From: Clostridia bacterium
GTDB lineage: Bacteria; Bacillota; Clostridia; Oscillospirales; CAG-272
Length of the DNA stretch: 64,000 bases
Direction: 5' to 3'
NCBI GenBank assembly: GCA_017415485.1
Contig: JAFQGP010000115.1
Span: forward strand, 8,135-72,134
Positions 3,480 to 45,024 of the stretch are shown piece after piece (position 1 is the first letter of the stretch; each line of letters starts with the position of its first letter). The notes beneath the pieces were generated by a model. The model made no database searches, was not told the DNA's origin, and saw nothing but the letters and a program-made list of their open reading frames with translations. The translations under genes were made by a program, and so were the position numbers.

Positions 3480-3611
3480 CGATCTTTGTTGCAATGAAAT
3501 CCGCCTTCGGCGGGTGAAATCGCGCGTTGCGCGATGAAATCGAGCTTCGCTCGGTGAAATCTTCGCCTTTGGCGAAGGTTTCGGAAGATTTTCTCGCGGG
3601 GCTCGAAAATC
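3465..3611. repeat. Hairpin-train element H1: 12-bp hairpin over the stop codon plus 4-5 GC hairpins separated by the word [AG]TGAAAT
   Basis: GCAACAAAGATC-TGAC-GATCTTTGTTGC, with the TGA stop in the loop. It is followed by aATGAAAT-ccgccttcggcgg, GTGAAAT-cgcgcgttgcgcg, ATGAAAT-cgagcttcgctcg and GTGAAAT-cttcgcctttggcgaag. Confidence 0.85.
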
Positions 3612-6699: not shown

Positions 6700-8097
6700 A
6701 TGAAGAAATTTTTAGCACTTGCAATCACCGCTGCTATGCTTCTTTCCTTCGCAGTAATCGGTACATCCGCTGCAGAAGTATATGACGGCACAAGCGTATC
6801 CGCTTCCCTTTCCGGCGCGGGAACAGAGGCTGATCCCTATCTTATCGCAAACGGCGCAGACCTTGCATTCTTTGCTGCAAACGCAGTAGCAGGCGCTTCC
6901 TACAAGCTCACCGCTGACATCGTCTGGGCTTCCGCTGCCGAGGCAACCAACTGGACTCCCGTTGAATTCAACGGCACCTTCGACGGAAACGGTCACTCGA
7001 TCTCCGGCCTCTGCGTCAAGGGCGAAAAGAATGCTGCATTCTTCGCAACCGCAGCCGGTGCCATCAAGAACCTTACCATTAAGGATTCCACATTTGAGGG
7101 ATCGAAGTACATCGCCGCTATTGTCGGTCAGGTAGTAGCTGCAGACGCAAAGGAATCCGCTCCTTCTCTCACGATCGAGAACTGTGTAAGCTACGCTACC
7201 CTCATCTCGACCAAGAACAGCTCACTCATCGGCTCTATGATCGGCGACGCTTTCGCTAACGCGAAGACCCCCAACTATCTCACAGTTACAGTTTCGGGTT
7301 GTGTTAACTACGGCACCATCAGCTCCACCACGGACGGCACCGTTTACGTTGGCGGTATCATCGGCCGTACCTACGGTATTCCCGCAATTGTTGAAAACTG
7401 CGCGAACTTCGGCGATCTCAACTCCATTTCCGCTATCACCGGCGGTATCGTCGGCCAGGGCGGTATCAGCGGCGATACCTACGAAGGCTTCTCTACCAAG
7501 ATCAGCAACTGCCTTAACACCGGCAACGCGACCGGCAAGCGTATCTGCGGCGGTATCATCGGCCGTGCATACCCCGGCGTATACGTTGACGGATGTGTAA
7601 ACACCGGCAGCATGACCATCACCGCTACCGATGCGGCTAAGGACGGCTACAACGATCAGCTCGGCCCCATCACCGGCCACGGCCCCGATGCAAGAGCAGA
7701 TGCAGCTACCTTCGTCAACTGCGGTGAGATCACAAACTGCTACAACTCCGCAGAAGCAGTTTTCACCAACTCGAACGATGCAGCAGCCAAGCCCTTCTAC
7801 GCTTCTCTTGCAACCAATAAAACCGCTGCAGAGCTTAACAGCGCCGCTACCGTTACCGCTCTCGGCGACGCTTGGGAGCTCAAGGACGGCGTTCTTACTC
7901 TCAAGATCGTTGCTACCGCAGGCCAGGTTGAATCCGCACAGCCCGAGGTAACAGAACCTGAGGTTACCGAGCCCGCTCCCGAAGACACCAAGCCCGCGGA
8001 TCCCGTTCCCACCGGCGACTCCGCTCTCGTTTTCGCAGTGATCGCAATCATCTCCGTCCTCGGAGTTGCTGCTGTTGCAAAGAGAAGAGAGAATTAA
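6700..8097 (+). CDS. Secreted GLUG-like beta-helix repeat surface protein with a C-terminal PTGDSAL/TM/KRREN sorting signal
   Basis: Signal peptide MKKFLALAITAAMLLSFAVIGTSAAE. Repeats of CxNxG...GGIIG/GGIVG. Ends DPVPTGDSALVFAVIAIISVLGVAAVAKRREN. Confidence 0.85.
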   Translation: MKKFLALAITAAMLLSFAVIGTSAAEVYDGTSVSASLSGAGTEADPYLIANGADLAFFAANAVAGASYKLTADIVWASAAEATNWTPVEFNGTFDGNGHSISGLCVKGEKNAAFFATAAGAIKNLTIKDSTFEGSKYIAAIVGQVVAADAKESAPSLTIENCVSYATLISTKNSSLIGSMIGDAFANAKTPNYLTVTVSGCVNYGTISSTTDGTVYVGGIIGRTYGIPAIVENCANFGDLNSISAITGGIVGQGGISGDTYEGFSTKISNCLNTGNATGKRICGGIIGRAYPGVYVDGCVNTGSMTITATDAAKDGYNDQLGPITGHGPDARADAATFVNCGEITNCYNSAEAVFTNSNDAAAKPFYASLATNKTAAELNSAATVTALGDAWELKDGVLTLKIVATAGQVESAQPEVTEPEVTEPAPEDTKPADPVPTGDSALVFAVIAIISVLGVAAVAKRREN

Positions 8098-8329
8098 GTG
8101 GACAGTGGTTAGTGGACAGTGGACAGAAAGATGCGAATGATAATTTAATTTGTATATTTGCTATCCATTGTACTAACTAATAATTTAATAGAAAAAACTC
8201 GGATATTATGACGCGTTTGCATCAAAATATCCGAGTTTTTCTATCGCTTATCCAAACGAAGTTAACAGTGCACAAAACAAAATTACTTGTCGCAACTTTC
8301 TGTTCACTGTCCACTAACCACTGTTCCCT
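8098..8329. repeat. Palindromic intergenic element E1 (GTGGACA-heptamer arms, AT-rich core with a bidirectional terminator)
   Basis: The left arm GTGGACAGTGGTTAGTGGACAGTGGACAGAAAG (8098-8130) is the reverse complement of 8296-8328 with 2-3 mismatches. The element fills essentially the whole gap between two converging stop codons (8097 and 8332). Confidence 0.9.
8192..8241. terminator. Bidirectional rho-independent terminator inside E1
   Basis: AAAAACTCGGATATT ... AATATCCGAGTTTTT, with an A-tract and a T-tract on the two sides. Confidence 0.75.
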
Positions 8330-8331
8330 TA

Positions 8332-9180
8332 CTAAGCCTTTCCCTCTTCAATAAGCTCAATAAGCTCCGCGGTGAGACCTTCGGTGTGGTGGCAAAGGCA
8401 GAGATCGGCAACCGCCTTGACACAATCAAGGGCGTTTGAAGGACAAACGGCGACGTCCGCAGCCGCGAGCATTGTCAGATCGTTCTCGTAGTCGCCGCAG
8501 GCATAGATCTTGACGGGCTTGCCAACCTTTTTCTCCACGTATTCGCGCAGAGCCGGGAGCATCGTCGCTTTTGTGGTATTGGGCGATTGGAATTCAAGAT
8601 ATGCCGCGCCGGATTTGCTTGTTTCGAATCTGCCGGGCCATTTTGCTTCGGCAGCTGAGCGGAATTCATCAATGCGCTCGTTTGATCCGCGAACGACGAG
8701 CTTGTACCAATCCGCGATCGAGACCCACTCCTCTTCGGGGAGTGTGAAGACCTTTGCGGGTGCAACTTTGTTCAGATCGCGGTCGACCTCCGGGCAACGT
8801 TCGCGCTGACCGGGTGAGGAAAGGAAGCCTTCCTCCACAGAGATCCTCGCGCCGAGGTCGGGGTATTCCTTGATCATATACTCAACAAGCTCCACTACGT
8901 GCTCGCGGTTCATCAGTCTGCCATCGATCATTTTGTCGGTGCGAAGGTCGCAAAGCATTGCGCCGTTACAACCGACAACGGGCGCGTTGACAAGGTCTGC
9001 CGCGTCGCGCCATTTGTGCTTGAGGTTGAGATTCGTTCTTCCCGTTGCGATAGTGAAATGACCTCCCTGAGCCTTGAGGCGCTCGACAGCTTCAAGATTG
9101 CGCTCGATTGGCGCGCCGTGATTGCCGAAAAAAGTGCCGTCAAGGTCGGTGACGATCAGAATATTACTTAAATCTGCCAT
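8332..9180 (-). CDS. Cof-type HAD-IIB family hydrolase (sugar-phosphatase-like)
   Basis: 282 aa. Motif I is VTDLDGTF. Cap-domain architecture and a C-terminal GDYENDLTM motif. Confidence 0.8.
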   Translation of the reverse strand: MADLSNILIVTDLDGTFFGNHGAPIERNLEAVERLKAQGGHFTIATGRTNLNLKHKWRDAADLVNAPVVGCNGAMLCDLRTDKMIDGRLMNREHVVELVEYMIKEYPDLGARISVEEGFLSSPGQRERCPEVDRDLNKVAPAKVFTLPEEEWVSIADWYKLVVRGSNERIDEFRSAAEAKWPGRFETSKSGAAYLEFQSPNTTKATMLPALREYVEKKVGKPVKIYACGDYENDLTMLAAADVAVCPSNALDCVKAVADLCLCHHTEGLTAELIELIEEGKA

Positions 9181-10657: not shown

Positions 10658-11016
10658 GCAAGTGCGAACAAAGCTTTCTGGGTGTCCCCTCATCACCCGC
10701 TGCGGCGGGAGCTTCTCCCAGGAGAAGCCTGGGGAACTGTGAGCTTCGTTTGATATTTCCAATTATTCATTTTTCATTATTCATTTGACCAATTTAGGTT
10801 TATAATGAATAATGAATAATTATTAATTGGCAAGAACACTTTTCTATACAATCGAAACCCAAGTAATATTAATTAACAAATTACATTCATTACTAATAAC
10901 GATAAGCTTCATTTAGATAATTCCAAATGAAGCTAACAGTGACCCCAAGGCTTCTCCTGGGAGAAGCTCCCGCCGCAGCGGGTGATGAGGGGACACCCAG
11001 AAGAATGTGTTAGCAC
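10658..11016. repeat. Long palindromic intergenic element E2 (arms about 95 bp, AT-rich core with a TTATTCA-word inner palindrome)
   Basis: The left arm GCAAGTGCGAACAAAGCTTTCTGGGTGTCCCCTCATCACCCGCTGCGGCGGGAGCTTCTCCCAGGAGAAGCC... recurs as its reverse complement at 10924-11016. The same arm family occurs at 32029 and 34919. Confidence 0.9.
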
Positions 11017-11048
11017 TATCTTTCAAAGAGCTCTAAAACAGATAAATT

Positions 11049-29321: not shown

Positions 29322-29412
29322 ATCAACCTCGCAAAAAATTTCGTTACACTATAATTATAATCTATTTTGCGACGAAATGTAACCCCTAAAAAGGTGGGAA
29401 ACTGGGAAATTA

Positions 29413-29713
29413 GTGGGCAGATCAGAGTGGACAGTGGACAGATCAGAGTGGACAGTGGACAGTGGACAGTGAACAGAAAGATGCGAATGATATTTTTATT
29501 TATCTTTTCTGTTAATTATTAAACAAATAATTTAATATATAAAACTCTCGGATATCTTGAATTCCTTCAAATATCCGAGAGTATTTTTTATTGCTTATTA
29601 CTCTTTAGTATAATACAAAAACTCTATGTTTTGCACAAAATTATTGCAGCAACCCGCATCTTTCTGTCCACTGTCCACTAACCACTGTCCACTCTTATCT
29701 GACCACTGTCCAC
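29413..29713. repeat. Palindromic intergenic element E3 (GTGGACA-heptamer arms, same family as E1)
   Basis: The left arm has (GTGGACA)n interspersed with GATCAGA and ends CAGAAAGATGCGAATGA as in E1. The right arm CTTTCTGTCCACTGTCCACTAACCACTGTCCAC is the exact reverse complement of the E1 left arm. Confidence 0.9.
29541..29589. terminator. Terminator hairpin in the E3 core
   Basis: ACTCTCGGATAT ... ATATCCGAGAGT followed by TTTTTT. It is homologous in position and sequence to the E1 core hairpin, with a TC/GA insertion pair in the stem. Confidence 0.7.
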
Positions 29714-29718
29714 TTTGC

Positions 29719-30940: not shown

Positions 30941-31984
30941 TTATACTCCCAGATACATTAAAATGAGCTCAACGGTTGCAACGAGCGCGTCGGCGTGGGT
31001 GCGCTCCATTCCGTGCGATGCGTGAACACCGGGGCCGATCAGCGCTCCGGGAACGTCGTGGCCCGCACGCCACATAGCTCCAACGTCGGAGCCGTAATAG
31101 GGGTAGAGGTCAACGCAATAAGGAAGCTCTGCCGCCTTCGCCATATCGATCAGCTTCGAGGTCAGCTCATAGTCATAAGGACCGCCCGCATCCTTTGCGC
31201 AGATCGAAAGAGTGTGCTCGTCGCACTTGAGATCCTTGCCTATGCAACCCATATCAACGGCAAGCATCGACTCGAGATTTTCGGGCACGAACGCCGCGCC
31301 GTGACCGACCTCCTCATACATCGAAACGAGGAATTTAATGTCCTTTTCGGGAACGATGCCCGCATCCTTCATAATTTTGAAGGCGGTGAGAATGCAAGCC
31401 ACGCTCGCCTTGTCGTCGATGAAGCGCGACTTGAGATAACCGCTTTCGGTAACGACGGTCTTGGGATCGAAGCATATGTAGTCGCCGTTTTCAATGCCGA
31501 GCGCGCGGGTGTCCGCCGCACTCTTTACGTTCTCGTCGAGGCGAACGTACATATTGTCTGCGTCACGCGAGCGGCTGCGCGCATCCGAATATACGTGAAC
31601 CGAGGGAGAACGCGAGAGGATAGTTCCCGTGTATCTCTTGCCCTCGCGGGTAATAACGAAGCAGTATTCACCGTCAAGCGAGTTGCAAAGAACTCCGCCG
31701 ACGGGAGCAAAATTGAGGTCACCGTTTCCGTCGATCGATCGAACCATCGCGCCGAGAGTGTCGCAATGCGCCGCAACACCGAGCGCGGAAGAATGATCCT
31801 TGCCCTCGTAAGTCATAAAGAAGCAGCTCTTCTTGGTAGCCTCAAGAGAGAGCCCCTGCTCCTCCGCAATATCCGCGAGCAGCGAAGCGATCTCGCGCGA
31901 ATATCCGCTCGGCGAAGGCACGTCCATCAGACGCTTCACGGTGTCAAAACAATATGATAAGTATTTTTCTCTGTCGAATTTCAT
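30941..31984 (-). CDS. M42-family metallopeptidase (glutamyl aminopeptidase / FrvX-like)
   Basis: 347 aa. Contains PSPSGYS and AAHCDTLG, with M42-like sequence throughout. Confidence 0.8.
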   Translation of the reverse strand: MKFDREKYLSYCFDTVKRLMDVPSPSGYSREIASLLADIAEEQGLSLEATKKSCFFMTYEGKDHSSALGVAAHCDTLGAMVRSIDGNGDLNFAPVGGVLCNSLDGEYCFVITREGKRYTGTILSRSPSVHVYSDARSRSRDADNMYVRLDENVKSAADTRALGIENGDYICFDPKTVVTESGYLKSRFIDDKASVACILTAFKIMKDAGIVPEKDIKFLVSMYEEVGHGAAFVPENLESMLAVDMGCIGKDLKCDEHTLSICAKDAGGPYDYELTSKLIDMAKAAELPYCVDLYPYYGSDVGAMWRAGHDVPGALIGPGVHASHGMERTHADALVATVELILMYLGV

Positions 31985-32028
31985 TTTATGTTCCTTTCTT
32001 TTGAGAAAAGTGTATTTTCTATAAAATC

Positions 32029-32423
32029 AGTGCGAACATAGACGCACTCGGTGTCCCCTCATCACCCGCTACGTCAGAACCCCAAAAACGCGCAAGCGCG
32101 TTTCCGGGAACCCGACGGCTGGAGCTTCTCCCAGGAGAAGCCTAAGGAAAGCTGTCGCTTTGAGCTAAATATTTCTCTGTTAGAGAAATGCTAAATTTTC
32201 GCTATGCAAAAGCTAAATACGCGCTTTGCGCGAGCTAAATATTCCGCCAAAGCGGAATGCAAAGGTAGAAATTTGCCAAGGCAAATTTCAATTTCATTTA
32301 ATTAATGATACGAATATTAGACAATACCAAACGAAGCTCACAGTAACCCCAGGCTTCTCCTGGAAGAAGCTCCCTCCGCAGAGGGTGATGAGGGGACACC
32401 CAGAAAGCTTTGTTCGCACTTGC
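32029..32423. repeat. Long palindromic intergenic element E4 (E2 arm family) with a central GCTAAAT hairpin train
   Basis: The arms GGTGTCCCCTCATCACCCGC...GGAGCTTCTCCCAGGAGAAGCC pair with their reverse complement at 32345-32423. The core at 32162-32292 has 5 hairpins separated by GCTAAAT. It is about 90% identical to E6. Confidence 0.9.
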
Positions 32424-32488
32424 TATTCTACTAAAATCGAAAATTTTCGCCTCGGCGAAAATTCACCTTAACTCTGCACTCTGAACTC

Positions 32489-33193
32489 TTAACTCTGCAC
32501 TATCTTTCGGATAATATGTCCCGCCATAATCAACCCTACCGCTCCCGGCACAAACGACAGGCTTCCCGGCGTATTTCTGCCGTTTTCGCTCTCAAGCCCT
32601 TGCGCCTTGATCGGCTCTTCGTCCGACCAGACGACGTCAAGCTTCTTGATACCTTTTTCCTTCATCTTCTTCCGCATAATTTTCGCAAGCGGGCAGACGC
32701 TCGTTTTGCTGATGTCGGATATGCGGAAACGCTCGGGATAAAGCTTGTTCCCCGCGCCCATCGAGGCAATAACGGGAACTCCCGCCGCATCTGCGCGGCA
32801 GATTAGCTCGACCTTTGCCGCGACGGTATCGACCGCGTCGGCAATGAAATCGAACTGCGAGAGGTCGATCTCGTCGGCATTTTCGGGCAGATAAAAGAGA
32901 TTGACGGGATGCACCTTACATTCGGGATTGATCGAAAGAATGCGCTCCGCCATAACCTCGGATTTTGGTCTGCCGACGGTATCCTGTGTCGCAATGATCT
33001 GGCGGTTTACGTTCGAGGTCGAAACCGTGTCGCCGTCAATGACTGTCAGCTCGCCGACCCCCGCGCGTGCCAAAGCCTCGCAAAGATGTCCGCCGACACC
33101 GCCAAGCCCGAAGACCGCAACGTGCGCCGATCTCAATCTGTTCACGCCCTCCTCGCCAAGCAAAGCCCGCGTGCGTGTATCGTCAAGTTGCAT
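32489..33193 (-). CDS. tcdA: tRNA threonylcarbamoyladenosine dehydratase (ThiF/HesA fold)
   Basis: 234 aa. Nucleotide-binding loop VFGLGGVGG, with TcdA/CsdL-like sequence. Confidence 0.85.
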   Translation of the reverse strand: MQLDDTRTRALLGEEGVNRLRSAHVAVFGLGGVGGHLCEALARAGVGELTVIDGDTVSTSNVNRQIIATQDTVGRPKSEVMAERILSINPECKVHPVNLFYLPENADEIDLSQFDFIADAVDTVAAKVELICRADAAGVPVIASMGAGNKLYPERFRISDISKTSVCPLAKIMRKKMKEKGIKKLDVVWSDEEPIKAQGLESENGRNTPGSLSFVPGAVGLIMAGHIIRKIVQS

Positions 33194-33215
33194 TTTGTCA
33201 CCTCATTTTGCCAAT

Positions 33216-33905
33216 TTATAACTCTGTCAAAACATCACCATTGAAATAATATATATTCTCTTTCTTATAACCGTAAAGCGAATCTTTTATACCGATGTGC
33301 GGCTCAAATGTAAAGAAACCGGTCTCGCTCAACTTGCGCTGATTACCTTTTTCGATATAAATTCGATCCGATTTCTTTCGTACTATGGAATGACCGAGAT
33401 TACCCAAGAAATCCAAATTGATAAAACCGTTGGAAGTTATATATTCATTCATATGATAATACAGTCCCTCAAAAGTGGTATTTCGATCAGCAAATCTCAG
33501 CAGTTCTTTATGAAGTTTTTCTTCCATAAGGAGTCCGTTTTTCCATTCAGAGTTTTGAATTACATCAATATTTTCAACAACCGCGCCATTTTCGATAATT
33601 ATTGTTCGTGCATAATCGCCCCATACAGATTCTTTTGAAGGACTCAAATCAATAGTAATAATATCACTATCTCCGATAGATTTATCGGCAGTTTTGTATT
33701 TCTTTCCCGAAACGGAAAGCGCTGTTTCATCCGATGAAAAGACAAAAGCGCCTACATCCCAATACCAAAATGAATCTGCTCCGAGCTCAAGCATTTTATT
33801 TTCGCATAAACTGCGAATATCAATAAGAGTCATTCCGGGCTTTATTTCTCCCTTTATATACTCCATCGTGAATTTCGCTATCTGTTGTACTTCTAAATTG
33901 GTCAT
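33216..33905 (-). CDS. M24-family metallopeptidase-fold protein (small, AT-rich gene)
   Basis: Start at MTNLEVQQ (33905); the upstream ORF extension reads through repeat E5. Motifs DLSP....WGDYARTI and GHSI... / FTFEPH resemble the pita-bread fold. Confidence 0.6.
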   Translation of the reverse strand: MTNLEVQQIAKFTMEYIKGEIKPGMTLIDIRSLCENKMLELGADSFWYWDVGAFVFSSDETALSVSGKKYKTADKSIGDSDIITIDLSPSKESVWGDYARTIIIENGAVVENIDVIQNSEWKNGLLMEEKLHKELLRFADRNTTFEGLYYHMNEYITSNGFINLDFLGNLGHSIVRKKSDRIYIEKGNQRKLSETGFFTFEPHIGIKDSLYGYKKENIYYFNGDVLTEL

Positions 33906-33934
33906 TTCTGTCCTTTCCGCAAATACAGACTTTG

Positions 33935-34154
33935 TCCTCCTCATCCACCACTGCCGTGGTCCCCCTTCCCCGCTGGGGAAGGCTTGTTGAGCGAGTGCTG
34001 ACATTGACTGTATGGGGTGATTTTGCAGTGCTTTTAGAAACGCTGGTAAATGCTCAATACTATTGCACTATACGATGTTCATAAGATCAAGTGAGACTAT
34101 AATTTAGCCTTCCCCAGCGGGGAAGGGGGACCACGGCAGTGGTGGATGAGGAGG
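33935..34154. repeat. Palindromic intergenic element E5 (same arm architecture as E2/E4/E6, different hairpin sequences)
   Basis: TCCTCCTCATCCACCACTGCCGTGGTCCCCCTTCCCCGCTGGGGAAGGC (33935-33983) pairs with its reverse complement at 34107-34154. Confidence 0.85.
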
Positions 34155-34347
34155 ACATTATCGCAGCAAATTGTATTCAGAAATCAAGTTGTAATGTAAT
34201 ATCGTTATAATTCTATCACAATTCCCCGAAATATGCAATAGAAATTTCAAAAGAGGTGCGTAAGTATGCAAAAAAATCTTTACAAGAGGGAAAAAATGGT
34301 GTATAATTATTCTGTATAAATATAAAATAATATTTTGAGGTGATAAT

Positions 34348-34899
34348 ATGCAAAGTATTGATATGACCGAGCGGCGCATTGACGGGCGCGAGGTCTATTC
34401 GGGCAAGATACTTCACGTTATGGTCGACCGTGTAACGCTTCCCGACGGCAAGGAGGCGACGCGCGAGTACGTCGGTCATCCCGGTGCGGTTTGCGTCGTT
34501 CCGATAAACGAAAAAGGCGAGGTGCTCTGCGTTCGTCAGTTCCGTTACACACACGGGCGCGTCTTCCTTGAAATTCCCGCGGGCAAGCTTGAGCCCGGCG
34601 AGACCGACCGACCCGCGGCGGCTCTGCGCGAGCTGCGTGAGGAAACGGGAGCCGTTTGCGAGACCTTGACTCACATCGGCGACTTCGTCCCCTCCCCCGC
34701 GATCCTCGGTGAGGTCATCTCGATGTATATTGCAGAGGGGCTTTCGATCGGCGAGACCGACCCCGATGACGACGAATTCATCGACGTTGAGGCAATTCCG
34801 CTCGACAAACTCGCCGAAATGTGCGTCTCGGGTGAGATAACCGATGGAAAAACTATCGCTGCGGTTCTTAAAGCGAAGTACATTTTTGATAAGAGATGA
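34348..34899 (+). CDS. NUDIX hydrolase, ADP-ribose pyrophosphatase type
   Basis: 183 aa. Nudix box GKLEPGETDRPAAALRELREETG. Confidence 0.85.
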   Translation: MQSIDMTERRIDGREVYSGKILHVMVDRVTLPDGKEATREYVGHPGAVCVVPINEKGEVLCVRQFRYTHGRVFLEIPAGKLEPGETDRPAAALRELREETGAVCETLTHIGDFVPSPAILGEVISMYIAEGLSIGETDPDDDEFIDVEAIPLDKLAEMCVSGEITDGKTIAAVLKAKYIFDKR

Positions 34900-34918
34900 T
34901 AATTGACTTTATCATTTA

Positions 34919-35285
34919 GCAAGTGCGAACAAAGCTTTCTGGGTGTCCCCTCATCACCCGCTACGTCAGAACCCCAAAAACGCGCAAGCGCGTTTCCGGG
35001 AACCCGACGGCGGGAGCTTCTCCCAGGAGAAGCCTAGGGAGTCTAACGCCTTGAGCTAAATATTTCTCTCTTAGAGAAATGCTAAATTTTTGCTATGCAA
35101 AAGCTAAATTCGCGCTTTGCGCGAGCTAAATATTCCGCTAAAGCGGAATGCAAAGGTAGAAATTTGCCAATGCAAATTTCAATTTAATAAATAATTCGAA
35201 GATTCGAGAATTCCAAACGAAGCTCACAGTAACCCCAGGCTTCTCCTGGGAGAAGCTCCCGCCGCAGCGGGTGATGAGGGGACAC
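34919..35285. repeat. Long palindromic intergenic element E6 (near-copy of E4, same orientation)
   Basis: Same arms as E4, and the same GCTAAAT hairpin train at 35053-35183. Confidence 0.9.
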
Positions 35286-35352
35286 CGTTTGTGCCCAATG
35301 AACACAAGTGAATATTCACTTTAACGATAAAAATTAATCAAGGAGTCCCAAA

Positions 35353-36867
35353 ATGAAACTCAATTACAAACGCACTTTATTTGTCGGATTCGCATTTTTC
35401 CTCATTTGCGCCTTCTGGCAGGCTTATGACACCATCGTTCCCAAGATCCTGACCGACCGCTTCGGTATGTCGCAGTTCTGGTCGGGCGCAATTATGGCTA
35501 TCGACAACATTCTCGCGCTCTTCCTTCTTCCCCTCTTCGGCATCCTTTCGGATAAGACAAAATCCAAGCTCGGACGCCGCACACCCTTCATCATCTTCGG
35601 CACTCTGATCGCGGCGACTGCGCTCATTTCGCTTTCCTTCGTCGATTCAATGCAGCTTGACCGCCTCGGTAACATTGCCGACATCAACTCCGAGGAAGCA
35701 CGCGCAGTCCTTTATGATTATGACTACGGCTCGCCCCTCGCGACTCCCGACGGCGTTGAATACACCCTCTCGGACGAATTCTCCCGCGAGGAGTTCCTCA
35801 CTCTCTCGCCCACGCTTGAAAACGGCAAGGCAAACCCCGATTACACCAATTTCGTCGTTCCCGCGCGCTCGGCTTATATCGCACGCGAGATCGTCGGCAA
35901 GGATCCTTCCGCGCTGATAACCTTCATCGCCGTGCTCTTTGTGTTGCTCCTTTCAATGGCGACCTTCCGCACTCCCGCCGTCGCGCTGATGCCCGACGTT
36001 ACGCCGCGCCCCTTGCGTTCCAAGGCTAACGCCGTCATCAATCTGATGGGCACCATTGGCGGAAGCCTTATCCTCGGACTCGGTATGATTCTTGCCACGG
36101 GCTCGACCAAGAACACGTATATGCCCTACACAGGCTATTTCTGCATCGTTGCGGGAATTATGCTTGTCAGCCTTGTGATCTTCCTTTCAACCGTCCGCGA
36201 GCGCAAATTCGTTGCGGAAATGGAAGAGATCAGCCGTAAAAACGCTATCCAAGAGGGCAACGACGAGGACGATGCATCCGGCAGCCGCAAGCTTTCGGGC
36301 GCGGAAAGGCTCTCGCTCATCCTCCTGCTTGCATCCGTTGTGCTTTGGTTCTTCGGCTACAACGCCGTAACGAGCAAATACTCGGTCTATGCGGGACGCG
36401 TTCTTCAGCTTGACTACAACTCCACCCTCCTCGTTGCAAACATTGCCGCCCTCATCGCATATCTCCCCGTCGGCTTCATTGCCACCAAGTTCGGCAGAAA
36501 GAAGACGATCCTCGCGGGCGTTATTATGCTCTCGGGCGCGTTCCTCACCGCATCCTTCCTTGACGCGGGAACTCCCCTGCCCGTTATGATGATCCTCTTC
36601 GCCATCGCGGGTATCGGATGGGCAACCATCAACGTCAACTCCTTCCCCATGGTCGTCGAGCTTGCACGCGGCGGTAACGTCGGCAAGTACACCGGCTTCT
36701 ACTACACCGCAAGTATGGCGGCACAGACCCTCACCCCCGTCGTTTCGGGTTATCTTATGGACTCCTTCGGACTCAAGATTCTCTTCCCCTACGCCGCTAT
36801 CTTCGCAGCAGGCGCGTTCATCACAATGCTCTTCGTCCGTCACGGCGACTCCAAACCCACGAAATGA
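35353..36867 (+). CDS. MFS transporter (glycoside/cation-symporter-like)
   Basis: 504 aa, about 12 TM segments, with a long extracytoplasmic or central loop. Confidence 0.75.
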   Translation: MKLNYKRTLFVGFAFFLICAFWQAYDTIVPKILTDRFGMSQFWSGAIMAIDNILALFLLPLFGILSDKTKSKLGRRTPFIIFGTLIAATALISLSFVDSMQLDRLGNIADINSEEARAVLYDYDYGSPLATPDGVEYTLSDEFSREEFLTLSPTLENGKANPDYTNFVVPARSAYIAREIVGKDPSALITFIAVLFVLLLSMATFRTPAVALMPDVTPRPLRSKANAVINLMGTIGGSLILGLGMILATGSTKNTYMPYTGYFCIVAGIMLVSLVIFLSTVRERKFVAEMEEISRKNAIQEGNDEDDASGSRKLSGAERLSLILLLASVVLWFFGYNAVTSKYSVYAGRVLQLDYNSTLLVANIAALIAYLPVGFIATKFGRKKTILAGVIMLSGAFLTASFLDAGTPLPVMMILFAIAGIGWATINVNSFPMVVELARGGNVGKYTGFYYTASMAAQTLTPVVSGYLMDSFGLKILFPYAAIFAAGAFITMLFVRHGDSKPTK

Positions 36868-37692: not shown

Positions 37693-38532
37693 ATGAGAGA
37701 TAATTACGACATTTTGAAGACCGAGGGCAGAAACCCTCGCACAATGGACATTGATAAGCTTTCCTCACTCGAAATGGTGCGCCTGATAAATCAGGAGAAC
37801 CGAGCCGTTGAGGACGGCATCGATGAGGCACTCCCCGAGATTGCGGCGGCTATTGATATGATAAGCGAAGCCATCGAGGCGGGGGGCCACGTCATTTATA
37901 TCGGCTGCGGCACTTCGGGCAGACTCGGCATCGTCGATGCCTCCGAATGCCCGCCCACCTTTGGCGTTGATTATGATCTTTTCCGCGGCGTTATCGCGGG
38001 CGGCAAGGAAGCCGTTTTCCGCGCGACCGAGAACGCCGAGGACAGCGAGGAAAAGGGTATGGCCGCCATCGAAGCCGACGGCGCGGCCAGAGGCGACGTT
38101 GTAGTCGGACTTTCCGCGTCGGGACGCGCGCCCTTCGTCATCGGCGCACTCAAAAAGGCAAAAGAACTCGGCTGCAAGACGATCTCCGTAACCTGCAACC
38201 CCGGCTCGCTTATGGAAAACTGCGCTGATATTGCCGTTTCGGTTTACGTCGGCCCCGAGGTAATTTCGGGCTCCACAAGACTCAAAGCCGGCACGGCACA
38301 GAAACTGATACTTAATATGTTCTCCACCTGCGCGATGATAAAGACGGGCAAAGTGCGCTCGAACCTCATGGTAAACGTCCGCCCGACCAACGAAAAGCTC
38401 GTTGAACGCGCGACACGCATCATTATGCAACTTTCCGACGCCGACAGAGAGACCGCCGAAAGACTGCTTGCGGAGTACGGCGAGGTGCCCGCGGCGCTGG
38501 ATGCGTATGAAAGTGCAAAAGGCAAAATGTAA
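37693..38532 (+). CDS. murQ: N-acetylmuramic acid 6-phosphate etherase
   Basis: Start at MRDNYDILKTEGRNPRTMDID. SIS domain GCGTSGRLG. The ATG lies 2 nt after the upstream stop. Confidence 0.9.
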   Translation: MRDNYDILKTEGRNPRTMDIDKLSSLEMVRLINQENRAVEDGIDEALPEIAAAIDMISEAIEAGGHVIYIGCGTSGRLGIVDASECPPTFGVDYDLFRGVIAGGKEAVFRATENAEDSEEKGMAAIEADGAARGDVVVGLSASGRAPFVIGALKKAKELGCKTISVTCNPGSLMENCADIAVSVYVGPEVISGSTRLKAGTAQKLILNMFSTCAMIKTGKVRSNLMVNVRPTNEKLVERATRIIMQLSDADRETAERLLAEYGEVPAALDAYESAKGKM

Positions 38533-38844
38533 AATGCAAAATGTAGGTGAATTTTCTCGCTTCGCTCAAAAATTTTCATTTGAATACAAGCAGCTTAAAG
38601 TTTTGATCGAACTTTTTCAAAAGTTCGCAGAGCTCGAGACAGCGTCTCGATTCAATGCAAAAGCTTCAGCTTTTGCCTCCGTGCTTCAAAATGGCGAAGC
38701 TTCGCTTCGACATTTTGGACAGAGTCAATACTTCCCGATTGTAGGGAAGTGCAGCTCTTGCGGTTTTCCGAAGGAAAATGGAGGCGTAAGCCGAGAAGCA
38801 AGAGTTGCAACTTGCCGTAGGCAAGTATTTGCGCTCTGTCACCC
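38521..38844. repeat. Structured repeat H2 (left module, copy A)
   Basis: It begins with (C/T)AAAATG x3 across the murQ stop. Positions 38549-38844 are homologous to 42879-43101, and the module ends GCGCTCTGTCACCC. It carries extra hairpins inserted at 38755-38830. Confidence 0.85.
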
Positions 38845-38904: not shown

Positions 38905-39114
38905 ATGAAAAAGAACCTTATCTGGAACATTATCTTAATAATCGGCATCATCCCTTTCATACTTCCGTTCGCTTTCGGCATATACAAAATTTCGATCGAA
39001 AGCTGGACGATGTTCGATTGGCTCGTTATGTACTCGTACATTTTTTGGCCCACTTATATCGTCGGCGCGGTAGTTATCGCGATTTCGATCATTGGAAGAT
39101 TCATAAAAAAGTGA
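38905..39114 (+). CDS. Small hydrophobic membrane protein (69 aa), the AT-rich cargo of element copy A
   Basis: MKKNLIWNIILIIGIIPFILPFAF..., with 2-3 TM segments. AT-rich codon usage unlike its neighbours. The stop lies inside the first hairpin of H3. Confidence 0.5.
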   Translation: MKKNLIWNIILIIGIIPFILPFAFGIYKISIESWTMFDWLVMYSYIFWPTYIVGAVVIAISIIGRFIKK

Positions 39115-39275
39115 AGGAGCAAAACCTCCCCGCGGGGAGGTTTTACTCCTTCCAAACAGCCTGCGGGGCGCAGTCTGTTTGAAGCGCAAGGGAATTTCGC
39201 CCTCTGCGGAGGGCGACTTAAGGCTCTGCCTTAAGAAACCGCAACCTTTTGAAAAAGGTTGACCAAAACTTTGAT
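39111..39275. repeat. Structured repeat H3 (right module, copy A)
   Basis: GTGAAGGAGCAAAACCTCCCCGCGGGGAGGTTTTACTCCTTC... contains five hairpins and is homologous to 44837-45001 with compensatory stem changes. Confidence 0.9.
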
Positions 39276-39295
39276 CTTTTTTGTTAGTTGGTAAA

Positions 39296-40844: not shown

Positions 40845-40879
40845 AAAATAAGCCGCCGCAAATAGCGGCGGCTTATTTT
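40845..40879 (+). terminator. Terminator/attenuator hairpin immediately after scfA
   Basis: AAAATAAGCCGCCG-caaata-GCGGCGGCTTATTTT. Confidence 0.75.
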
Positions 40880-40880
40880 G

Positions 40881-41090
40881 CGATATAGATCCTTGCGGAT
40901 CTGTGATATACGCAGAGCGTGCGATATACCTTCGGCACGATATGCCCCTTCGGGGCGTGATTTCACGTTCGCCTTCGGCGAACATATCGTATCGCGCTTT
41001 GCACGATATATCGTACTGTTTGCCAAAGGCAAACAGTATATCGTATGAGCATAGCGAATATATCGTGTTTACTAAATAAACGAGGTTAAC
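40881..41090. repeat. Hairpin-train element H4 (word CGATAT / ATATCG, overall palindromic)
   Basis: About 9 GC hairpins (gatccttgcggatc, gccccttcggggc, gttcgccttcggcgaac, actgtttgccaaaggcaaacagt ...). The spacer is (G)CGATAT(A) in the left half and ATATCGT in the right half. The centre is cgtgatttcacg. Confidence 0.85.
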
Positions 41091-41092
41091 CG

Positions 41093-41464
41093 ATGAATAA
41101 TATCACTATACGCGAATTAGCAGTAGAATTGACCGTTGAAATTACGCAAATATGCGATAATATCAAAGGAAGAAGCGTTTTCATAAATCAAATTTTGAGA
41201 TCCTGTTCTTCCATCGGAGCAAATTCCGCAGAAGCCAAATATGCACAAAGTTCCGCAGACTTCATTCACAAATTGGAAATCTCACTCAAAGAATGCTATG
41301 AAACCGATTATTGGCTTGAAATCCTTTATAAAACCAATTCAATGGATAAAGAAACATATATAAGATTGTTAAATAAATGCGGTTCTATTCGCAGAAAGCT
41401 TATTGCCTCCATAACAACGGCAAAAGCAAATTCAGAACAGCAATCCGGAGGTACAACAAAATGA
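41093..41464 (+). CDS. Four-helix-bundle protein (23S rRNA intervening-sequence protein family, PF05635/TIGR02436)
   Basis: 123 aa. Contains ...QILRSCSSIGANSAEAKYAQSSADFIHKLEISLKECYETDYWLEIL. AT-rich. Its stop overlaps the scfB ATG (ATGA). Confidence 0.85.
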   Translation: MNNITIRELAVELTVEITQICDNIKGRSVFINQILRSCSSIGANSAEAKYAQSSADFIHKLEISLKECYETDYWLEILYKTNSMDKETYIRLLNKCGSIRRKLIASITTAKANSEQQSGGTTK

Positions 41465-42843
41465 TCCATTCCTATAAACTTGGCGGTTACAATATCGTCC
41501 TTGACGTCGGCTCGGGCGCGGTGCACGCGGTTGATGATCTTGCCTATGACGTCATAAATCTCTACGAAACCAAGTCGGCAGACGAGATCGTCTCGGTCTG
41601 CCTTGAAAAATTCGCCTCCGAAGGTATCACCGAAGAGGACATCCGCGACACGATCTCCGACGTTGAAGAGCTCAAACAGAGCGGCAAACTTTACGCCGAG
41701 GATATCTATGCGCCCCTCGTCGGCAAGCTCAAGAACAATTCCAACATCGTCAAGGCACTCTGCCTGCACGTCGCGCACACCTGCAACCTCAACTGCGAAT
41801 ACTGCTTCGCGGCACAGGGTCGATTCCACGGCGAACGCGCCCTGATGTCATTTGAGGTCGGCAAGCGCGCGCTTGATTTCCTTGTTGAAAACTCGGGAAC
41901 CCGCCACAATCTTGAAGTCGACTTCTTCGGCGGCGAGCCGCTGATGAACTGGCAGGTCGTCAAGGATCTCGTTGCCTACGCGCGCTCGATCGAGGAAGCC
42001 GCAGGCAAGCATTTCCGCTTCACGCTGACGACAAACGGCGTGCTGATCGACGACGACGTCATTGATTTTGCCAACAAAGAGATGGACAACGTCGTTCTCT
42101 CGCTCGACGGCAGACGCCACGTGCACGACAACCTCCGCAAAACTGTGAACGGTCAGGGCAGCTATGACCTGATCCTTCCGAAGTTCAAGGAATTCGTCAC
42201 CCGCCGCGGCGACAAGGGCTACTATATGCGCGGTACATACACCAAGTTCAACACCGATTTCTGCTCCGACATCATCCACATGGCTGACGAAGGCTTTACC
42301 GAGCTTTCGATGGAGCCCGTAGTCTGCCCTCCCGGCGACCCCTACGCACTCGGCGACGAGGATCTGCCCGTGCTTTACGATCAGTATGAAAAGCTCGCCT
42401 TTGAGATGATGGACCGCAAGAAGCGCGGCAAGCCGATCACCTTCTATCACTATATGCTCGACCTTGAGGGCGGCCCCTGCATCTACAAGAGAATTTCCGG
42501 CTGCGGCTCGGGCACCGAGTATATGGCTGTCACCCCTTGGGGCGACCTTTACCCCTGCCATCAGTTCGTCGGCGACGAAAAATACCTCCTCGGCGACATC
42601 TGGAAGGGCGTAACGAACGACGCCATCCGCGACGAATTCCGCTCCTGCTCGGCATATTCGAGAGAGGAATGCCGCGACTGCTGGGCCAGACTCTACTGCT
42701 CCGGCGGCTGCGCCGCGAACTCCTACCACGCAACCGGAAGCGTAAACGGCGTTTATGAGTACGGATGTAAGCTGTTCAAGAAACGAATCGAGTGCGCGAT
42801 CATGCTGAAGGTCGCGGAATCCCTCGAAAACGAAGAAGAATAA
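41461..42843 (+). CDS. scfB: SCIFF radical SAM/SPASM maturase
   Basis: Start at MIHSYKLGGYNIVLDVGSGAVHAVDD. CNLNCEYC radical-SAM motif and a Cys-rich SPASM C-terminus (CRDCWARLYCSGGCAANS). Confidence 0.92.
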   Translation: MIHSYKLGGYNIVLDVGSGAVHAVDDLAYDVINLYETKSADEIVSVCLEKFASEGITEEDIRDTISDVEELKQSGKLYAEDIYAPLVGKLKNNSNIVKALCLHVAHTCNLNCEYCFAAQGRFHGERALMSFEVGKRALDFLVENSGTRHNLEVDFFGGEPLMNWQVVKDLVAYARSIEEAAGKHFRFTLTTNGVLIDDDVIDFANKEMDNVVLSLDGRRHVHDNLRKTVNGQGSYDLILPKFKEFVTRRGDKGYYMRGTYTKFNTDFCSDIIHMADEGFTELSMEPVVCPPGDPYALGDEDLPVLYDQYEKLAFEMMDRKKRGKPITFYHYMLDLEGGPCIYKRISGCGSGTEYMAVTPWGDLYPCHQFVGDEKYLLGDIWKGVTNDAIRDEFRSCSAYSREECRDCWARLYCSGGCAANSYHATGSVNGVYEYGCKLFKKRIECAIMLKVAESLENEEE

Positions 42844-43101
42844 GTTGCTAGTTGCTAGACGCTAGTTGCTAGTTGAAGGTTAATTTCCGCCCTGATCGGG
42901 CGGAAATTTTCATTCTAATTAAAGAGCAGGAAAGTTTTCGTCCACCTTTTTCAAAAGGTGGCGGAGCACGAGGCAGAGCCTCGGACTAATGCGAAAGCTT
43001 CAGCTTTCGCTTCTGCGCTTCAAAATGACGAAGCTCTGCTTCGGCATTTTGGACAGAGTCAACACTTCCCGAATGTAGGGAAGTGTTGCGCTCTGTCACC
43101 C
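42844..43101. repeat. Structured repeat H5 (left module, copy B)
   Basis: It begins with GTTGCTA-type heptamers x5 directly after the scfB stop, continues with sequence homologous to 38549-38844, and ends GCGCTCTGTCACCC. Confidence 0.9.
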
Positions 43102-44599: not shown

Positions 44600-44836
44600 T
44601 GACGATATATCAAGAGCCCTCCCGCTTGCGGGAGGGTTGGGAGGGGAGTCAGCGGCGCGCGAAATTTGAGCACCAAAACCAAACTCAAAGCGAAATATAA
44701 TAAAAATGTGAAAATCCGCCGCGGCGGATTTTTCCTTTACGTTCCGCGGTGCGGAACATATCGCATCGCGAAGCGATATATCGTATCCGCAGGATATATC
44801 GCGCCGAAGGCATATCGTGCGCCCTGCGGGCGCAGG
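44600..44836. repeat. Hairpin-train element H6a (ATATCG word)
   Basis: ccctcccgcttgcgggaggg and aaatccgccgcggcggattt, followed by gttccgcggtgcggaac-ATATCGC-atcgcgaagcgat-ATATCGT-atccgcaggat-ATATCGC-gccgaaggc-ATATCGT-gcgccctgcgggcgc. Confidence 0.85.
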
Positions 44837-45001
44837 GTGAAGGAGCAAAAATCTCCCGCAAGGGGAGATTTTACTCCTTCCGAACCGTCGACGGGGCGTC
44901 GCCGGTTCGAAGCACAAGGAAATTTCGCGCTCTGCGGAGCGCGACTTAAGGCTCTGCCTTAAGAAACCGCAAACTTTTGAAAAAGTTTGATCAAAACTTT
45001 T
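44837..45001. repeat. Structured repeat H6b (right module, copy B)
   Basis: Collinear with 39111-39275. Linkers are identical (TTACTCCTTCC, CTTAAGGCTCTGCCTTAAGAAACCGCAA) and the stems differ by paired substitutions. Confidence 0.9.
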
Positions 45002-45024
45002 CCGCTGATATAGTTAAATTGTTC

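Follow-up and report, generated by a model that had tools for sequence, protein, structure and literature searches.

E5, a palindromic intergenic element of a Clostridia bacterium, and its family of tagged two-hairpin repeats

E5, a 225-base palindromic element (33933-34157) in a 64,000-nt stretch of Clostridia bacterium DNA (contig JAFQGP010000115.1; the whole stretch is called the window below), is by sequence and pairing a homologue, and a diverged family member, of three other elements in the window, E2, E4, and E6. Its 52-nt arms are 100% complementary and stand 121 nt apart between the divergent genes of an M24 peptidase and a NUDIX protein. The arm module is real and widespread, and it exists in many copies in which compensatory substitutions preserve the pairing; the same arm recurs at unrelated loci. 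E2-type copies are recently homogeneous, the family has a subfamily structure, and collapsed derivatives exist. We consider it fairly probable that E5 has diverged within a dispersed family of composite, non-coding palindromic repeats of an uncultured gut Clostridia lineage, whose members spread or are exchanged between spacers as DNA.

E5 and its relatives in the window

Each E5 arm consists of an unpaired leader followed by two hairpins, and the two arms form a palindrome, as the initial annotation had described. The left arm (33933..33984, plus strand), delimited from the sequence and matched by our covariance model R1 at 33937-33983, carries the leader CCTCATCC (33939-33946), hairpin 1 (ACCAC-TGCC-GTGGT, 33947-33960, with ACCAC at 33947-51 and GTGGT at 33956-60), a CCC linker, and hairpin 2 (CCTTCCCC-GCT-GGGGAAGG, 33964-33982, with CCTTCCCC at 33964-71 and GGGGAAGG at 33975-82). 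Hairpin 1 had been given as CCAC-tgcc-GTGG with a 4-bp stem; the hairpin is there, and its stem is 5 bp long (ACCAC/GTGGT). The right arm (34106..34157, minus strand) is the exact reverse complement of the left, with hairpin 2 at 34108-34126, hairpin 1 at 34130-34143, the leader complement GGATGAGG at 34144-34151, and a minus-strand R1 match at 34107-34153. The ends of the element read TGTCCTCCTCATCC...GGATGAGGAGGACA, and an arm read outward terminates in the Shine–Dalgarno (SD)-like sequence GGAUGAGGAGG. Together with an outer module, ACAGACT, present on the left side only, the whole element found by inverted-repeat search spans 33925..34157 (no strand assigned).

Folded as single strands, the E5 arms form exactly two hairpins (z-scores of -3.4 and -3.6), and the centre shows no structure beyond chance (z +0.7 and +1.1). 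Folding of the whole element yields a 52-bp duplex of -147.5 kcal/mol (z -14). The centre (33985..34105) is AT-rich and contains no open reading frame (ORF). Its inner edges, TGC..ACAT on the left and ACGATGTT..GAGAcTATAAT on the right, are kept in orthologous and paralogous elements, as demonstrated by alignment with the retrieved loci L129 and L127.

The three relatives of E5 belong to one family and are likewise listed without strand. E2 (10658..11020) is a high-copy-type palindromic element in the ileS-lspA spacer that scores 65.4 bits with R1; its arms read GGTGTCC-CCTCATCA-CCCGC.TGCG.GCGGG-A-GCTTCTCC.CA.GGAGAAGC, with GCAAGTGCGAACAAAGCTTTCTGG as outer modules. In E4 (32028..32423) the left arm has a nested hairpin and the right arm carries a compensated variant, CCCTC/GAGGG; E6 (34919..35310) has the same centre as E4 and an alternative outer module, ..GGGCACAAACGG, at its right end. 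The centres of E4 and E6 are hairpin trains with GCTAAAT linkers, arranged as a tandem array with a period of 22. The E2/E4/E6 arms had been quoted correctly, except that the left arms of E4 and E6 additionally carry a conserved 45-nt insertion, ACGTCAGAACCCCAAAAACGCGCAAGCGCGTTTCCGGGAACCCGA, nested in hairpin 1 (32068-32112 and 34960-35004). This long form recurs in several metagenome-assembled genomes (MAGs; about 10 copies), indicating a subfamily rather than a local accident. Outer modules of the GCAAGTGCGAACAAAGCTTTCTGG type stand at 10658-10681, 32028-32050, 32402-32423, and 34919-34942. The outer module of E5 is not private to it: ACAGACT is common to the loci L127, L129, L137, L140, and L151, and ACAGAC is shared with some E2-type ends (GCAGTACAGACGG; ..GCAGTACAGACGGTGTCC) and with L127, L129, and L137.

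Two motif counts tie the four elements together. For the motif CCTCATCNNCC the window has 8 occurrences where 0.48 would be expected, all 8 at E2, E4, E5, or E6 arms, and the leader and hairpin 2 searched as a single pattern give 5 matches against 0.00 expected. The leader had been proposed as CCTCATC[AC]ACC; this form (or CCTCATCNACC) fits E5 and does not fit E2, E4, and E6, which read CCTCATCACCC, and the form shared by all four is CCTCATCMMCC. Aligned in register, the arms of E5 and E2 agree at 30 of 44 positions (about 68%), including the entire leader. Three of the five stem pairs of hairpin 1 are the same and two are changed on both sides (A-T to C-G and A-T to G-C); in hairpin 2, six of eight are the same and two are again changed on both sides (C-G to G-C and C-G to T-A). 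None of these differences breaks a pair, and all four are compensatory double changes. Because every stem difference preserves pairing, E5 is best described as a homologue with compensatory substitutions and not as a lookalike in shape only. The stem sequences are therefore not replaced, as had been stated, since 3/5 and 6/8 stem positions are identical to E2. The conservation of structure stands, and the description of the arms as sequence-free is overstated, because they are about 68% identical and their variants form discrete, recurring subfamilies.

A model-based search gave the same grouping. R1 was built from 13 arms, none of E5 type and all of one linker class; the first MAFFT seed had placed two linker classes out of register, and a one-class seed was used for this reason. 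Run over the window with filters off, R1 recovered six short-form and two long-form arms of E2, E4, and E6 and both E5 arms, with no other full-length match in the 64 kb. The match to each E5 arm is full length and has 2 nt inserted in the linker, at 39.6 bits and E=6e-10, a rough E-value from a home-made model. A model that contains no E5-type arm thus recovers both E5 arms, which supports their assignment to the E2/E4/E6 group.

The arm module in other genomes and phage-like contigs

The wider sample comprised about 0.4 Mb drawn from related MAGs and metagenomes, to which IMG/VR loci added 0.74 Mb, all retrieved by means of the repeat itself, with crude gene calls outside the window. Searched in IMG/VR, a pattern fixing only the leader and hairpin 2, with 15-21 free bases between them, matched 58 stretches, and the reversed control pattern matched 0. 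The E5-subtype pattern, CCTCATCCACC..GGTCCCCCTTCCCC, matched 30 stretches. Among 133 distinct arms, the free region between leader and hairpin 2 pairs into a hairpin of >=5 bp in 109, composition-matched shuffles averaging 13.7 and never exceeding 26. These arms contain 52 distinct hairpin-1 stems, among which ACCGC, GGCGC, ACCAC, GCCCC, CCCGC, GTCGCC, GTCAGC, and others recur and are common to distant genomes; the loops are often UUCG-, GCAA-, or UACG-like. Many further arms with the tagged two-hairpin layout and different stems therefore exist, contrary to the condition that would have refuted the initial interpretation, and R1 gives 115 matches, 59 of them distinct, in the MAG and metagenome loci.

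Over the 115 R1 matches, standard pairs make up 98.4% of cells and 8 of the 13 pairs show compensatory change on both sides, a result reached by 0 of 500 shuffles. Sliding the partner columns by 1-3 positions lowers pairing to 44-69%. Of the 59 distinct arms, 53 have CCTCATC(C/A) as leader and 4 have CCTCATTC. Hairpin 2 has the consensus CCTTCYCC/GGRGAAGG and is more conserved than hairpin 1. The module is about 45 nt long and consists of the unpaired tag CCTCATC, a hairpin 1 that varies by subfamily, a linker of 1-3 nt, and hairpin 2. The non-Watson-Crick cells on the CCTCATC strand include 5 G.T and 0 A.C, which hints weakly that the leader strand is the structured one. No Rfam family matched the arms, either at the gathering threshold over the whole window or at E<=10 over 31900-35400 (E4-E6), and no description of this repeat was found in the searchable literature on it, on its sequence, or on Clostridial intergenic repeats.

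The E2-type repeat is present in many copies. An exact E2-type 20-mer was found in 42 stretches, many close to contig ends, in six species-representative genomes (22 in JAZSOQ), all of them from uncultured organisms: five "Eubacteriales bacterium" MAGs and "Clostridia bacterium RGIG402" from cattle colon. As many as 39 arms are identical to the window E2 arm (65.4 bits). From the E2-type loci and the window, 25 complete palindromic elements were delimited, every one intergenic, in tandem (19), divergent (4), and convergent (2) gene contexts; their terminal inverted repeats (TIRs) measure about 80-100 nt in the E2 type, outer modules included. The E5 type occurs once in the 64-kb window, and its exact arm (47/47) recurs at no fewer than three metagenome loci, within palindromic elements on the contigs L137, L140, and L151. 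Similarity among these three contigs and the window is limited to the element, the flanks being non-homologous. The right arm of L137 has a different hairpin 1, GTCAGCC/GGCTGAC, and that of L151 has ACCGC/GCGGT, one compensatory step from ACCAC/GTGGT.

Complete elements follow a mosaic order from outside to centre: outer module, tag-plus-two-hairpin arm, inner module, and variable centre. The outer modules are GCAAGTGCGAACAAAGCTTTCTGG, or ..GGGCACAAACGG / ..GCAGTACAGACGG, or ACAGACTCCGATCT. In E4, E6, and L133, a fixed 7-nt linker (GCTAAAT or ATATCAT) connects the short, sequence-variable hairpins that make up the centre. L133 holds the orthologue of E2, which has kept the arms with a completely different centre. 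The initial annotation had joined the palindromic E elements to hairpin-train "H modules" through E5. Such a link does exist, by way of the hairpin-train centres of E4, E6, and the L133 orthologue of E2; E5 itself does not provide it, because its centre is unstructured.

Turnover at orthologous sites and the origin of the element

Comparison with relatives demonstrated that, at the orthologous spacer, turnover of the element greatly outpaces that of the sequence on either side. L129 (JAZSOQ; M24 91% identical in amino acids) shares synteny with the window, at a DNA identity of about 92%, and has a palindromic element at the position of E5, with a left hairpin 1 of GTCAGCCC/GGGCTGCC, a right one of GGCGC/GCGCC, a longer hairpin 2, and inner edges that align to E5. 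Identity between L129 and the window is 92-94% in the M24 and NUDIX genes and the flank, about 80% in the arms, and about 75% in the centre, with a length difference of 54 nt. In L136 (M24 81%) the contig stops within such an arm. In L135 (M24 85%) the site holds a collapsed form, CCCTCATCCAC-TGCTTGCGCG-GTGGATGAGGG, a 34-nt hairpin followed by a window-like right flank. L003 and L004, of the same species as the window (identical NUDIX protein), lack both M24 and E5, about 1 kb being replaced by 31 nt with boundaries off the arms; the missing segment (33194-34205 versus L003 2827-2870) also includes 48 nt to the right of E5. Since M24 is present in sister species, its absence from L003 and L004 represents a deletion.

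The NUDIX-MFS spacer behaves similarly, with E6 in the window, an inside-out arrangement in L129, and a palindrome of hairpin 2 only in L135. At 5430-5730 of L129, the leaders of two arms, both of the variant form CCTCATTC, point toward one another, with inner-type modules (..GTGCGAACAT) outside. Collapsed forms comprise leader-hairpin 1-inverted leader units (30-34 nt), hairpin-2-only palindromes, and 63-nt mini-elements, at sites where relatives have full elements. Collapsed derivatives were seen at L098 1587-1615, L107 2-31, L135 2440-2480, L135 1090-1150, and L102 1193-1255.

E5 lies, as initially annotated, between divergent genes and creates a spurious N-terminal extension of the M24 ORF. 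The M24 peptidase gene (33216..33905, minus strand; Pfam PF00557) encodes 229 aa from a start at 33905, both in the gene calls on identical contigs and in all of the closest homologues (100% coverage). The ORF 33216-34004 (262 aa) begins within E5 and adds 33 residues (33906-34004, minus strand) that read through the left arm; given the uniform 229 aa of the gene calls and closest homologues, its start at 34004 is an artefact. Longer M24 homologues were considered as arm-derived and rejected, their N-terminal extensions being ordinary protein sequence and not translated arms. On the other side of E5, the NUDIX gene (34348-34899, plus strand) is preceded by a promoter-like site, TTTACA-17-TATAAT (34279-34307, plus strand), which lies outside E5 and is retained in strains without M24 and E5. 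It is the sole good sigma-70-like site in the M24-NUDIX spacer, and the E5 centre contains no consensus promoter; across copies, an A/T-rich and at times TATAAT-like patch just inside the arms is inconsistent. The neighbouring genes (M42, ThiF, M24, NUDIX, MFS, GDPD, and SIS) are housekeeping genes of mixed orientation. As the edge of E5 is 27 nt from the M24 start codon, M24 mRNA would have either to start inside E5 or to carry the whole 52-bp duplex.

Taken together, these data are what leads us to favor a repeat that moves as DNA. Such an element consists of two inverted modules that, along with the outer and inner ones, enclose an AT-rich centre of variable sequence, which in some copies is a Gut-1-like hairpin train. 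It would spread or be exchanged by transposition, by gene conversion between copies, or by both. The hairpins would be needed by the machinery of spreading, copying, or maintenance, as single-stranded DNA or as RNA. Each hairpin and its mirror image in the opposite arm are direct repeats, so that slippage or recombination between the two would delete everything between them, and the collapsed forms may have arisen in this way. If transcribed, the element would form local hairpins or the 52-bp duplex and should affect M24 mRNA, for example through RNase III cleavage or protection of the 5' end.

Several results weigh against this interpretation. No pair of filled and empty sites with precise boundaries, from which a target-site duplication could be read, was found, relatives differing over whole spacers; 3-nt repeats adjoin the element ends in L151 and L127 and could be due to chance. 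No transposase was detected among the window ORFs tested (about 25 proteins scanned against Pfam), no IS5-like transposase was detected by tblastn in about 1.2 Mb of retrieved loci, and these loci contain no long TIR pair enclosing an ORF and no candidate autonomous element. The one lead is that GTGCGAACAA (10 nt) is common to the E2-type outer module GCAAGTGCGAACAAAGCTTTCTGG and the left end of IS5 from E. coli, GGAAGGTGCGAACAAGTCCC, a terminus sequence that was confirmed in E. coli. The covariation statistics come from a model-fitted alignment of related and partly redundant copies. In 740 kb of IMG/VR loci the module is always single, with no inverted partner, which makes the doublet layout lineage-specific. 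In the phage-like contigs the arms show a sense bias of about 3:1 upstream of SD-preceded starts (53 versus 18 of 118, by crude gene calls), a bias no harder to reconcile with an RNA function than with selfish DNA. The SD-plus-start test was used because orientation by greedy ORF calls is unreliable in GC-rich contigs, where it placed 55 arms "in ORFs". [quoted passage not shown]

A broader proposal, which we put forward tentatively, is that the tag-plus-two-hairpin arm may be an undescribed structured nucleic-acid motif common to a broad range of Clostridia from gut and rumen and to the phages of these bacteria. A dedicated trans-acting factor would recognise it, for instance a HUH transposase specific for hairpins or a protein that binds or processes RNA, and with Gut-1-like trains it would form a modular "hairpin grammar", exchanged rapidly, by which intergenic spacers are filled and rewired. 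If this is true, the orphan Gut-1 motif gains a genomic context and a host. The occurrence of the arm in phage-like contigs, combined with its unusually clean covariation, makes it a tractable candidate for a new hairpin-recognising enzyme or RNA element. Much work has gone into the small interspersed repeats of Proteobacteria, Neisseria, and pneumococci, and hardly any into those of the uncultured Clostridia that dominate animal guts. The present family breaks metagenome assemblies, makes spurious ORF extensions, and speeds spacer evolution relative to the flanking genes, and a covariance model of its arm could serve to mask or annotate such repeats in MAGs.

The sense bias leads to the first alternative, namely that the arm acts first of all as RNA, a functional module in mRNA leaders or spacers that might stabilise 5' ends, be processed or cut by RNase III, or bind a protein. 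Clostridia and their phages would use it, and the doublets would serve transcription in the two directions leaving a spacer or crossing it. A conserved unpaired tag and linker combined with covarying stems is a classic signature of structured RNA, and the frequent UUCG-, GCAA-, or UACG-like loops, the G.T excess on the CCTCATC strand, the SD-like GGAUGAGGAGG at the outward-read arm end, and the co-orientation of all copies within each multi-copy viral contig agree with it. We nevertheless regard it as rather unlikely. Start codons are directly preceded by arms in either orientation (antisense in L039 and L015, sense in L073 and L080), E elements occupy every gene-orientation context, and a search at E<=10 matched no Rfam family. 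That near-identical arms stand at dozens of assembly-breaking loci points to recent amplification rather than to ancient cis-regulators, and the orthologous spacer tolerates loss or collapse of the element.

The elements could also be functionless palindromic DNA, with pairing maintained without selection by DNA mechanics, in which quasi-palindrome (template-switch) correction and gene conversion, from arm to arm and from copy to copy, keep restoring perfect hairpins. The E5 arms are identical at 52/52 positions in a family that has otherwise diverged, compensated variants such as CCCTC/GAGGG recur in many copies, the collapsed and inside-out forms demonstrate ready rearrangement of the palindrome, and the element evolves faster than its flanks. 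This explanation is nonetheless improbable, because it leaves the conserved unpaired tag, linker, and hairpin 2 across distant genomes and phage contigs unexplained, and sister elements with a hairpin 1 that differs between the two arms (L129, L137, and L151) argue against obligatory homogenisation. That E5 is a substrate of site-specific recombination, either an invertible M24/NUDIX promoter or an attC-like site of an M24 cassette, is hardly credible: an inverted repeat does surround an AT-rich segment between divergent genes, and M24 and E5 are co-present or co-absent between strains, but the centre has the same orientation in four independent assemblies (the window, L001, L002, and L005, a small sample), the neighbours include no invertase, integrase, or recombinase, the same arms occupy dozens of unrelated spacers, the E5 ends lack attC GTTRRRY/RYYYAAC boxes, the indel boundary falls 48 nt outside E5 and at the ThiF start instead of at the arms, and sister species have M24, making its absence from strains a deletion.

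Relation to known repeats and structured RNAs

The hairpin-train centres invite comparison with the Gut-1 RNA motif (Rfam RF01706), in which three hairpins are joined by UGAAAU (Weinberg et al. 2010, PMC2864571). Gut-1 matches the window at 3492-3565 (75.6 bits) and, below threshold, at 40878-40968 (40.7 bits) and 44753-44820 (minus strand). Hairpin trains with other 7-nt linkers are present as well, with GCTAAAT in E4 and E6 (32150-32290 and 35050-35190) and ATATCGT elsewhere (40985-41070 and 44757-44815). Like Gut-1, these trains combine hairpins of free sequence with a fixed linker, and the "H modules" are on this basis Gut-1-like. The E arms, in contrast, match neither Gut-1 nor any other Rfam family, and the linkers of E4 and E6 are GCTAAAT rather than UGAAAU. 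Gut-1 has been described as found in the "human gut only", without a known host; its presence here places this orphan Rfam motif in a defined lineage and context.

Other repeats in the window are of different construction. A five-hairpin module of about 165 nt is present in two copies (39100-39285 and 44825-45010) that are 88% identical, with 11 predicted pairs changed on both sides and still able to pair; neither copy had a convincing Rfam match. E1 (8075-8351) and E3 (29412-29717) are palindromes between convergent genes, with arms made of inverted AGTGGAC heptamer arrays and a shared centre of A-run, hairpin, and T-run that resembles a bidirectional terminator. Neither has the CCTCATC leader, and the suggestion that this leader marks all element ends does not hold. 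Further heptamer arrays of 4-5 copies each, AGTTGCT (42843-42875), AAAATGC (38510-38543), and AACTCTG (32470-32501), stand at or just past stop codons, and the module at 32439-32501 recurs twice in the metagenome locus L151. Directly after the ATATCGT hairpin train, the ORF 41093-41398 encodes a protein of the 23S rRNA-intervening-sequence family (PF05635, 79 bits). A diversity-generating retroelement around this 23S_rRNA_IVP/Avd-like ORF was considered and rejected, as the next ORF encodes a radical SAM enzyme and no reverse transcriptase is nearby.

Among mobile repeats, MITEs such as the Correia elements of Neisseria and RUP resemble the E elements in being small, non-coding, and dispersed between genes, with TIRs and a long duplex predicted if transcribed; Correia elements are targets of RNase III (PMC3049150). 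The E elements differ in having no demonstrated target-site duplication or parent insertion sequence, and in that their centres vary among copies with the same arms, as between the window E2 and its L133 orthologue.

The REP (repetitive extragenic palindromic) sequences, with the bacterial interspersed mosaic elements (BIMEs) and REPIN doublets built from them, are tagged palindromic units (Di Nocera et al. 2013, PMC3733652). They share with the E elements short GC-rich hairpins, an unpaired conserved tag at one end, inverted pairs that fold into larger structures, and an extragenic position in a mosaic with other short motifs. In contrast, the E tag is CCTCATC, which places it outside the GTAG and CGTC REP super-families; each E unit has two hairpins, the inverted units lie 120-300 nt apart, often with cargo between them, and the hosts are Clostridia. 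No gene for a RAYT, the REP-associated Y1/HUH transposase, was identified among the approximately 25 window proteins scanned against Pfam, which include no transposase.

The BOX elements of Streptococcus pneumoniae, with their boxA-(boxB)n-boxC layout (Croucher et al. 2011, PMC3049150), are likewise composite intergenic repeats of Firmicutes, present in many copies, with extensive secondary structure and probably co-transcribed with their neighbours. In both families, terminal modules that pair enclose tandem internal modules, short and variable in number, which in E4 and E6 are GCTAAAT-hairpin units of about 22 nt, and both create spurious or real ORFs; E4 and E6 have the internal array, and E5 has arms only. 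The comparison is one of layout and not of boxA, boxB, or boxC sequence, and the hosts are unrelated (Streptococcus versus uncultured Eubacteriales). The E arms differ in being true inverted copies of 50-100 nt, each with two autonomous hairpins and a conserved unpaired tag; their stems vary between subfamilies by compensatory changes, and the arm module occurs singly in phage-like contigs. Overall, E5 and its relatives look like a composite interspersed repeat of the BOX/BIME/REPIN sort, of a selfish mosaic kind, rather than a new class of system. What distinguishes them is the two-hairpin tagged arm with clean covariation, its discrete subfamilies, its presence both in gut Clostridia and in phage-like contigs, and its use as long TIRs around Gut-1-like trains.

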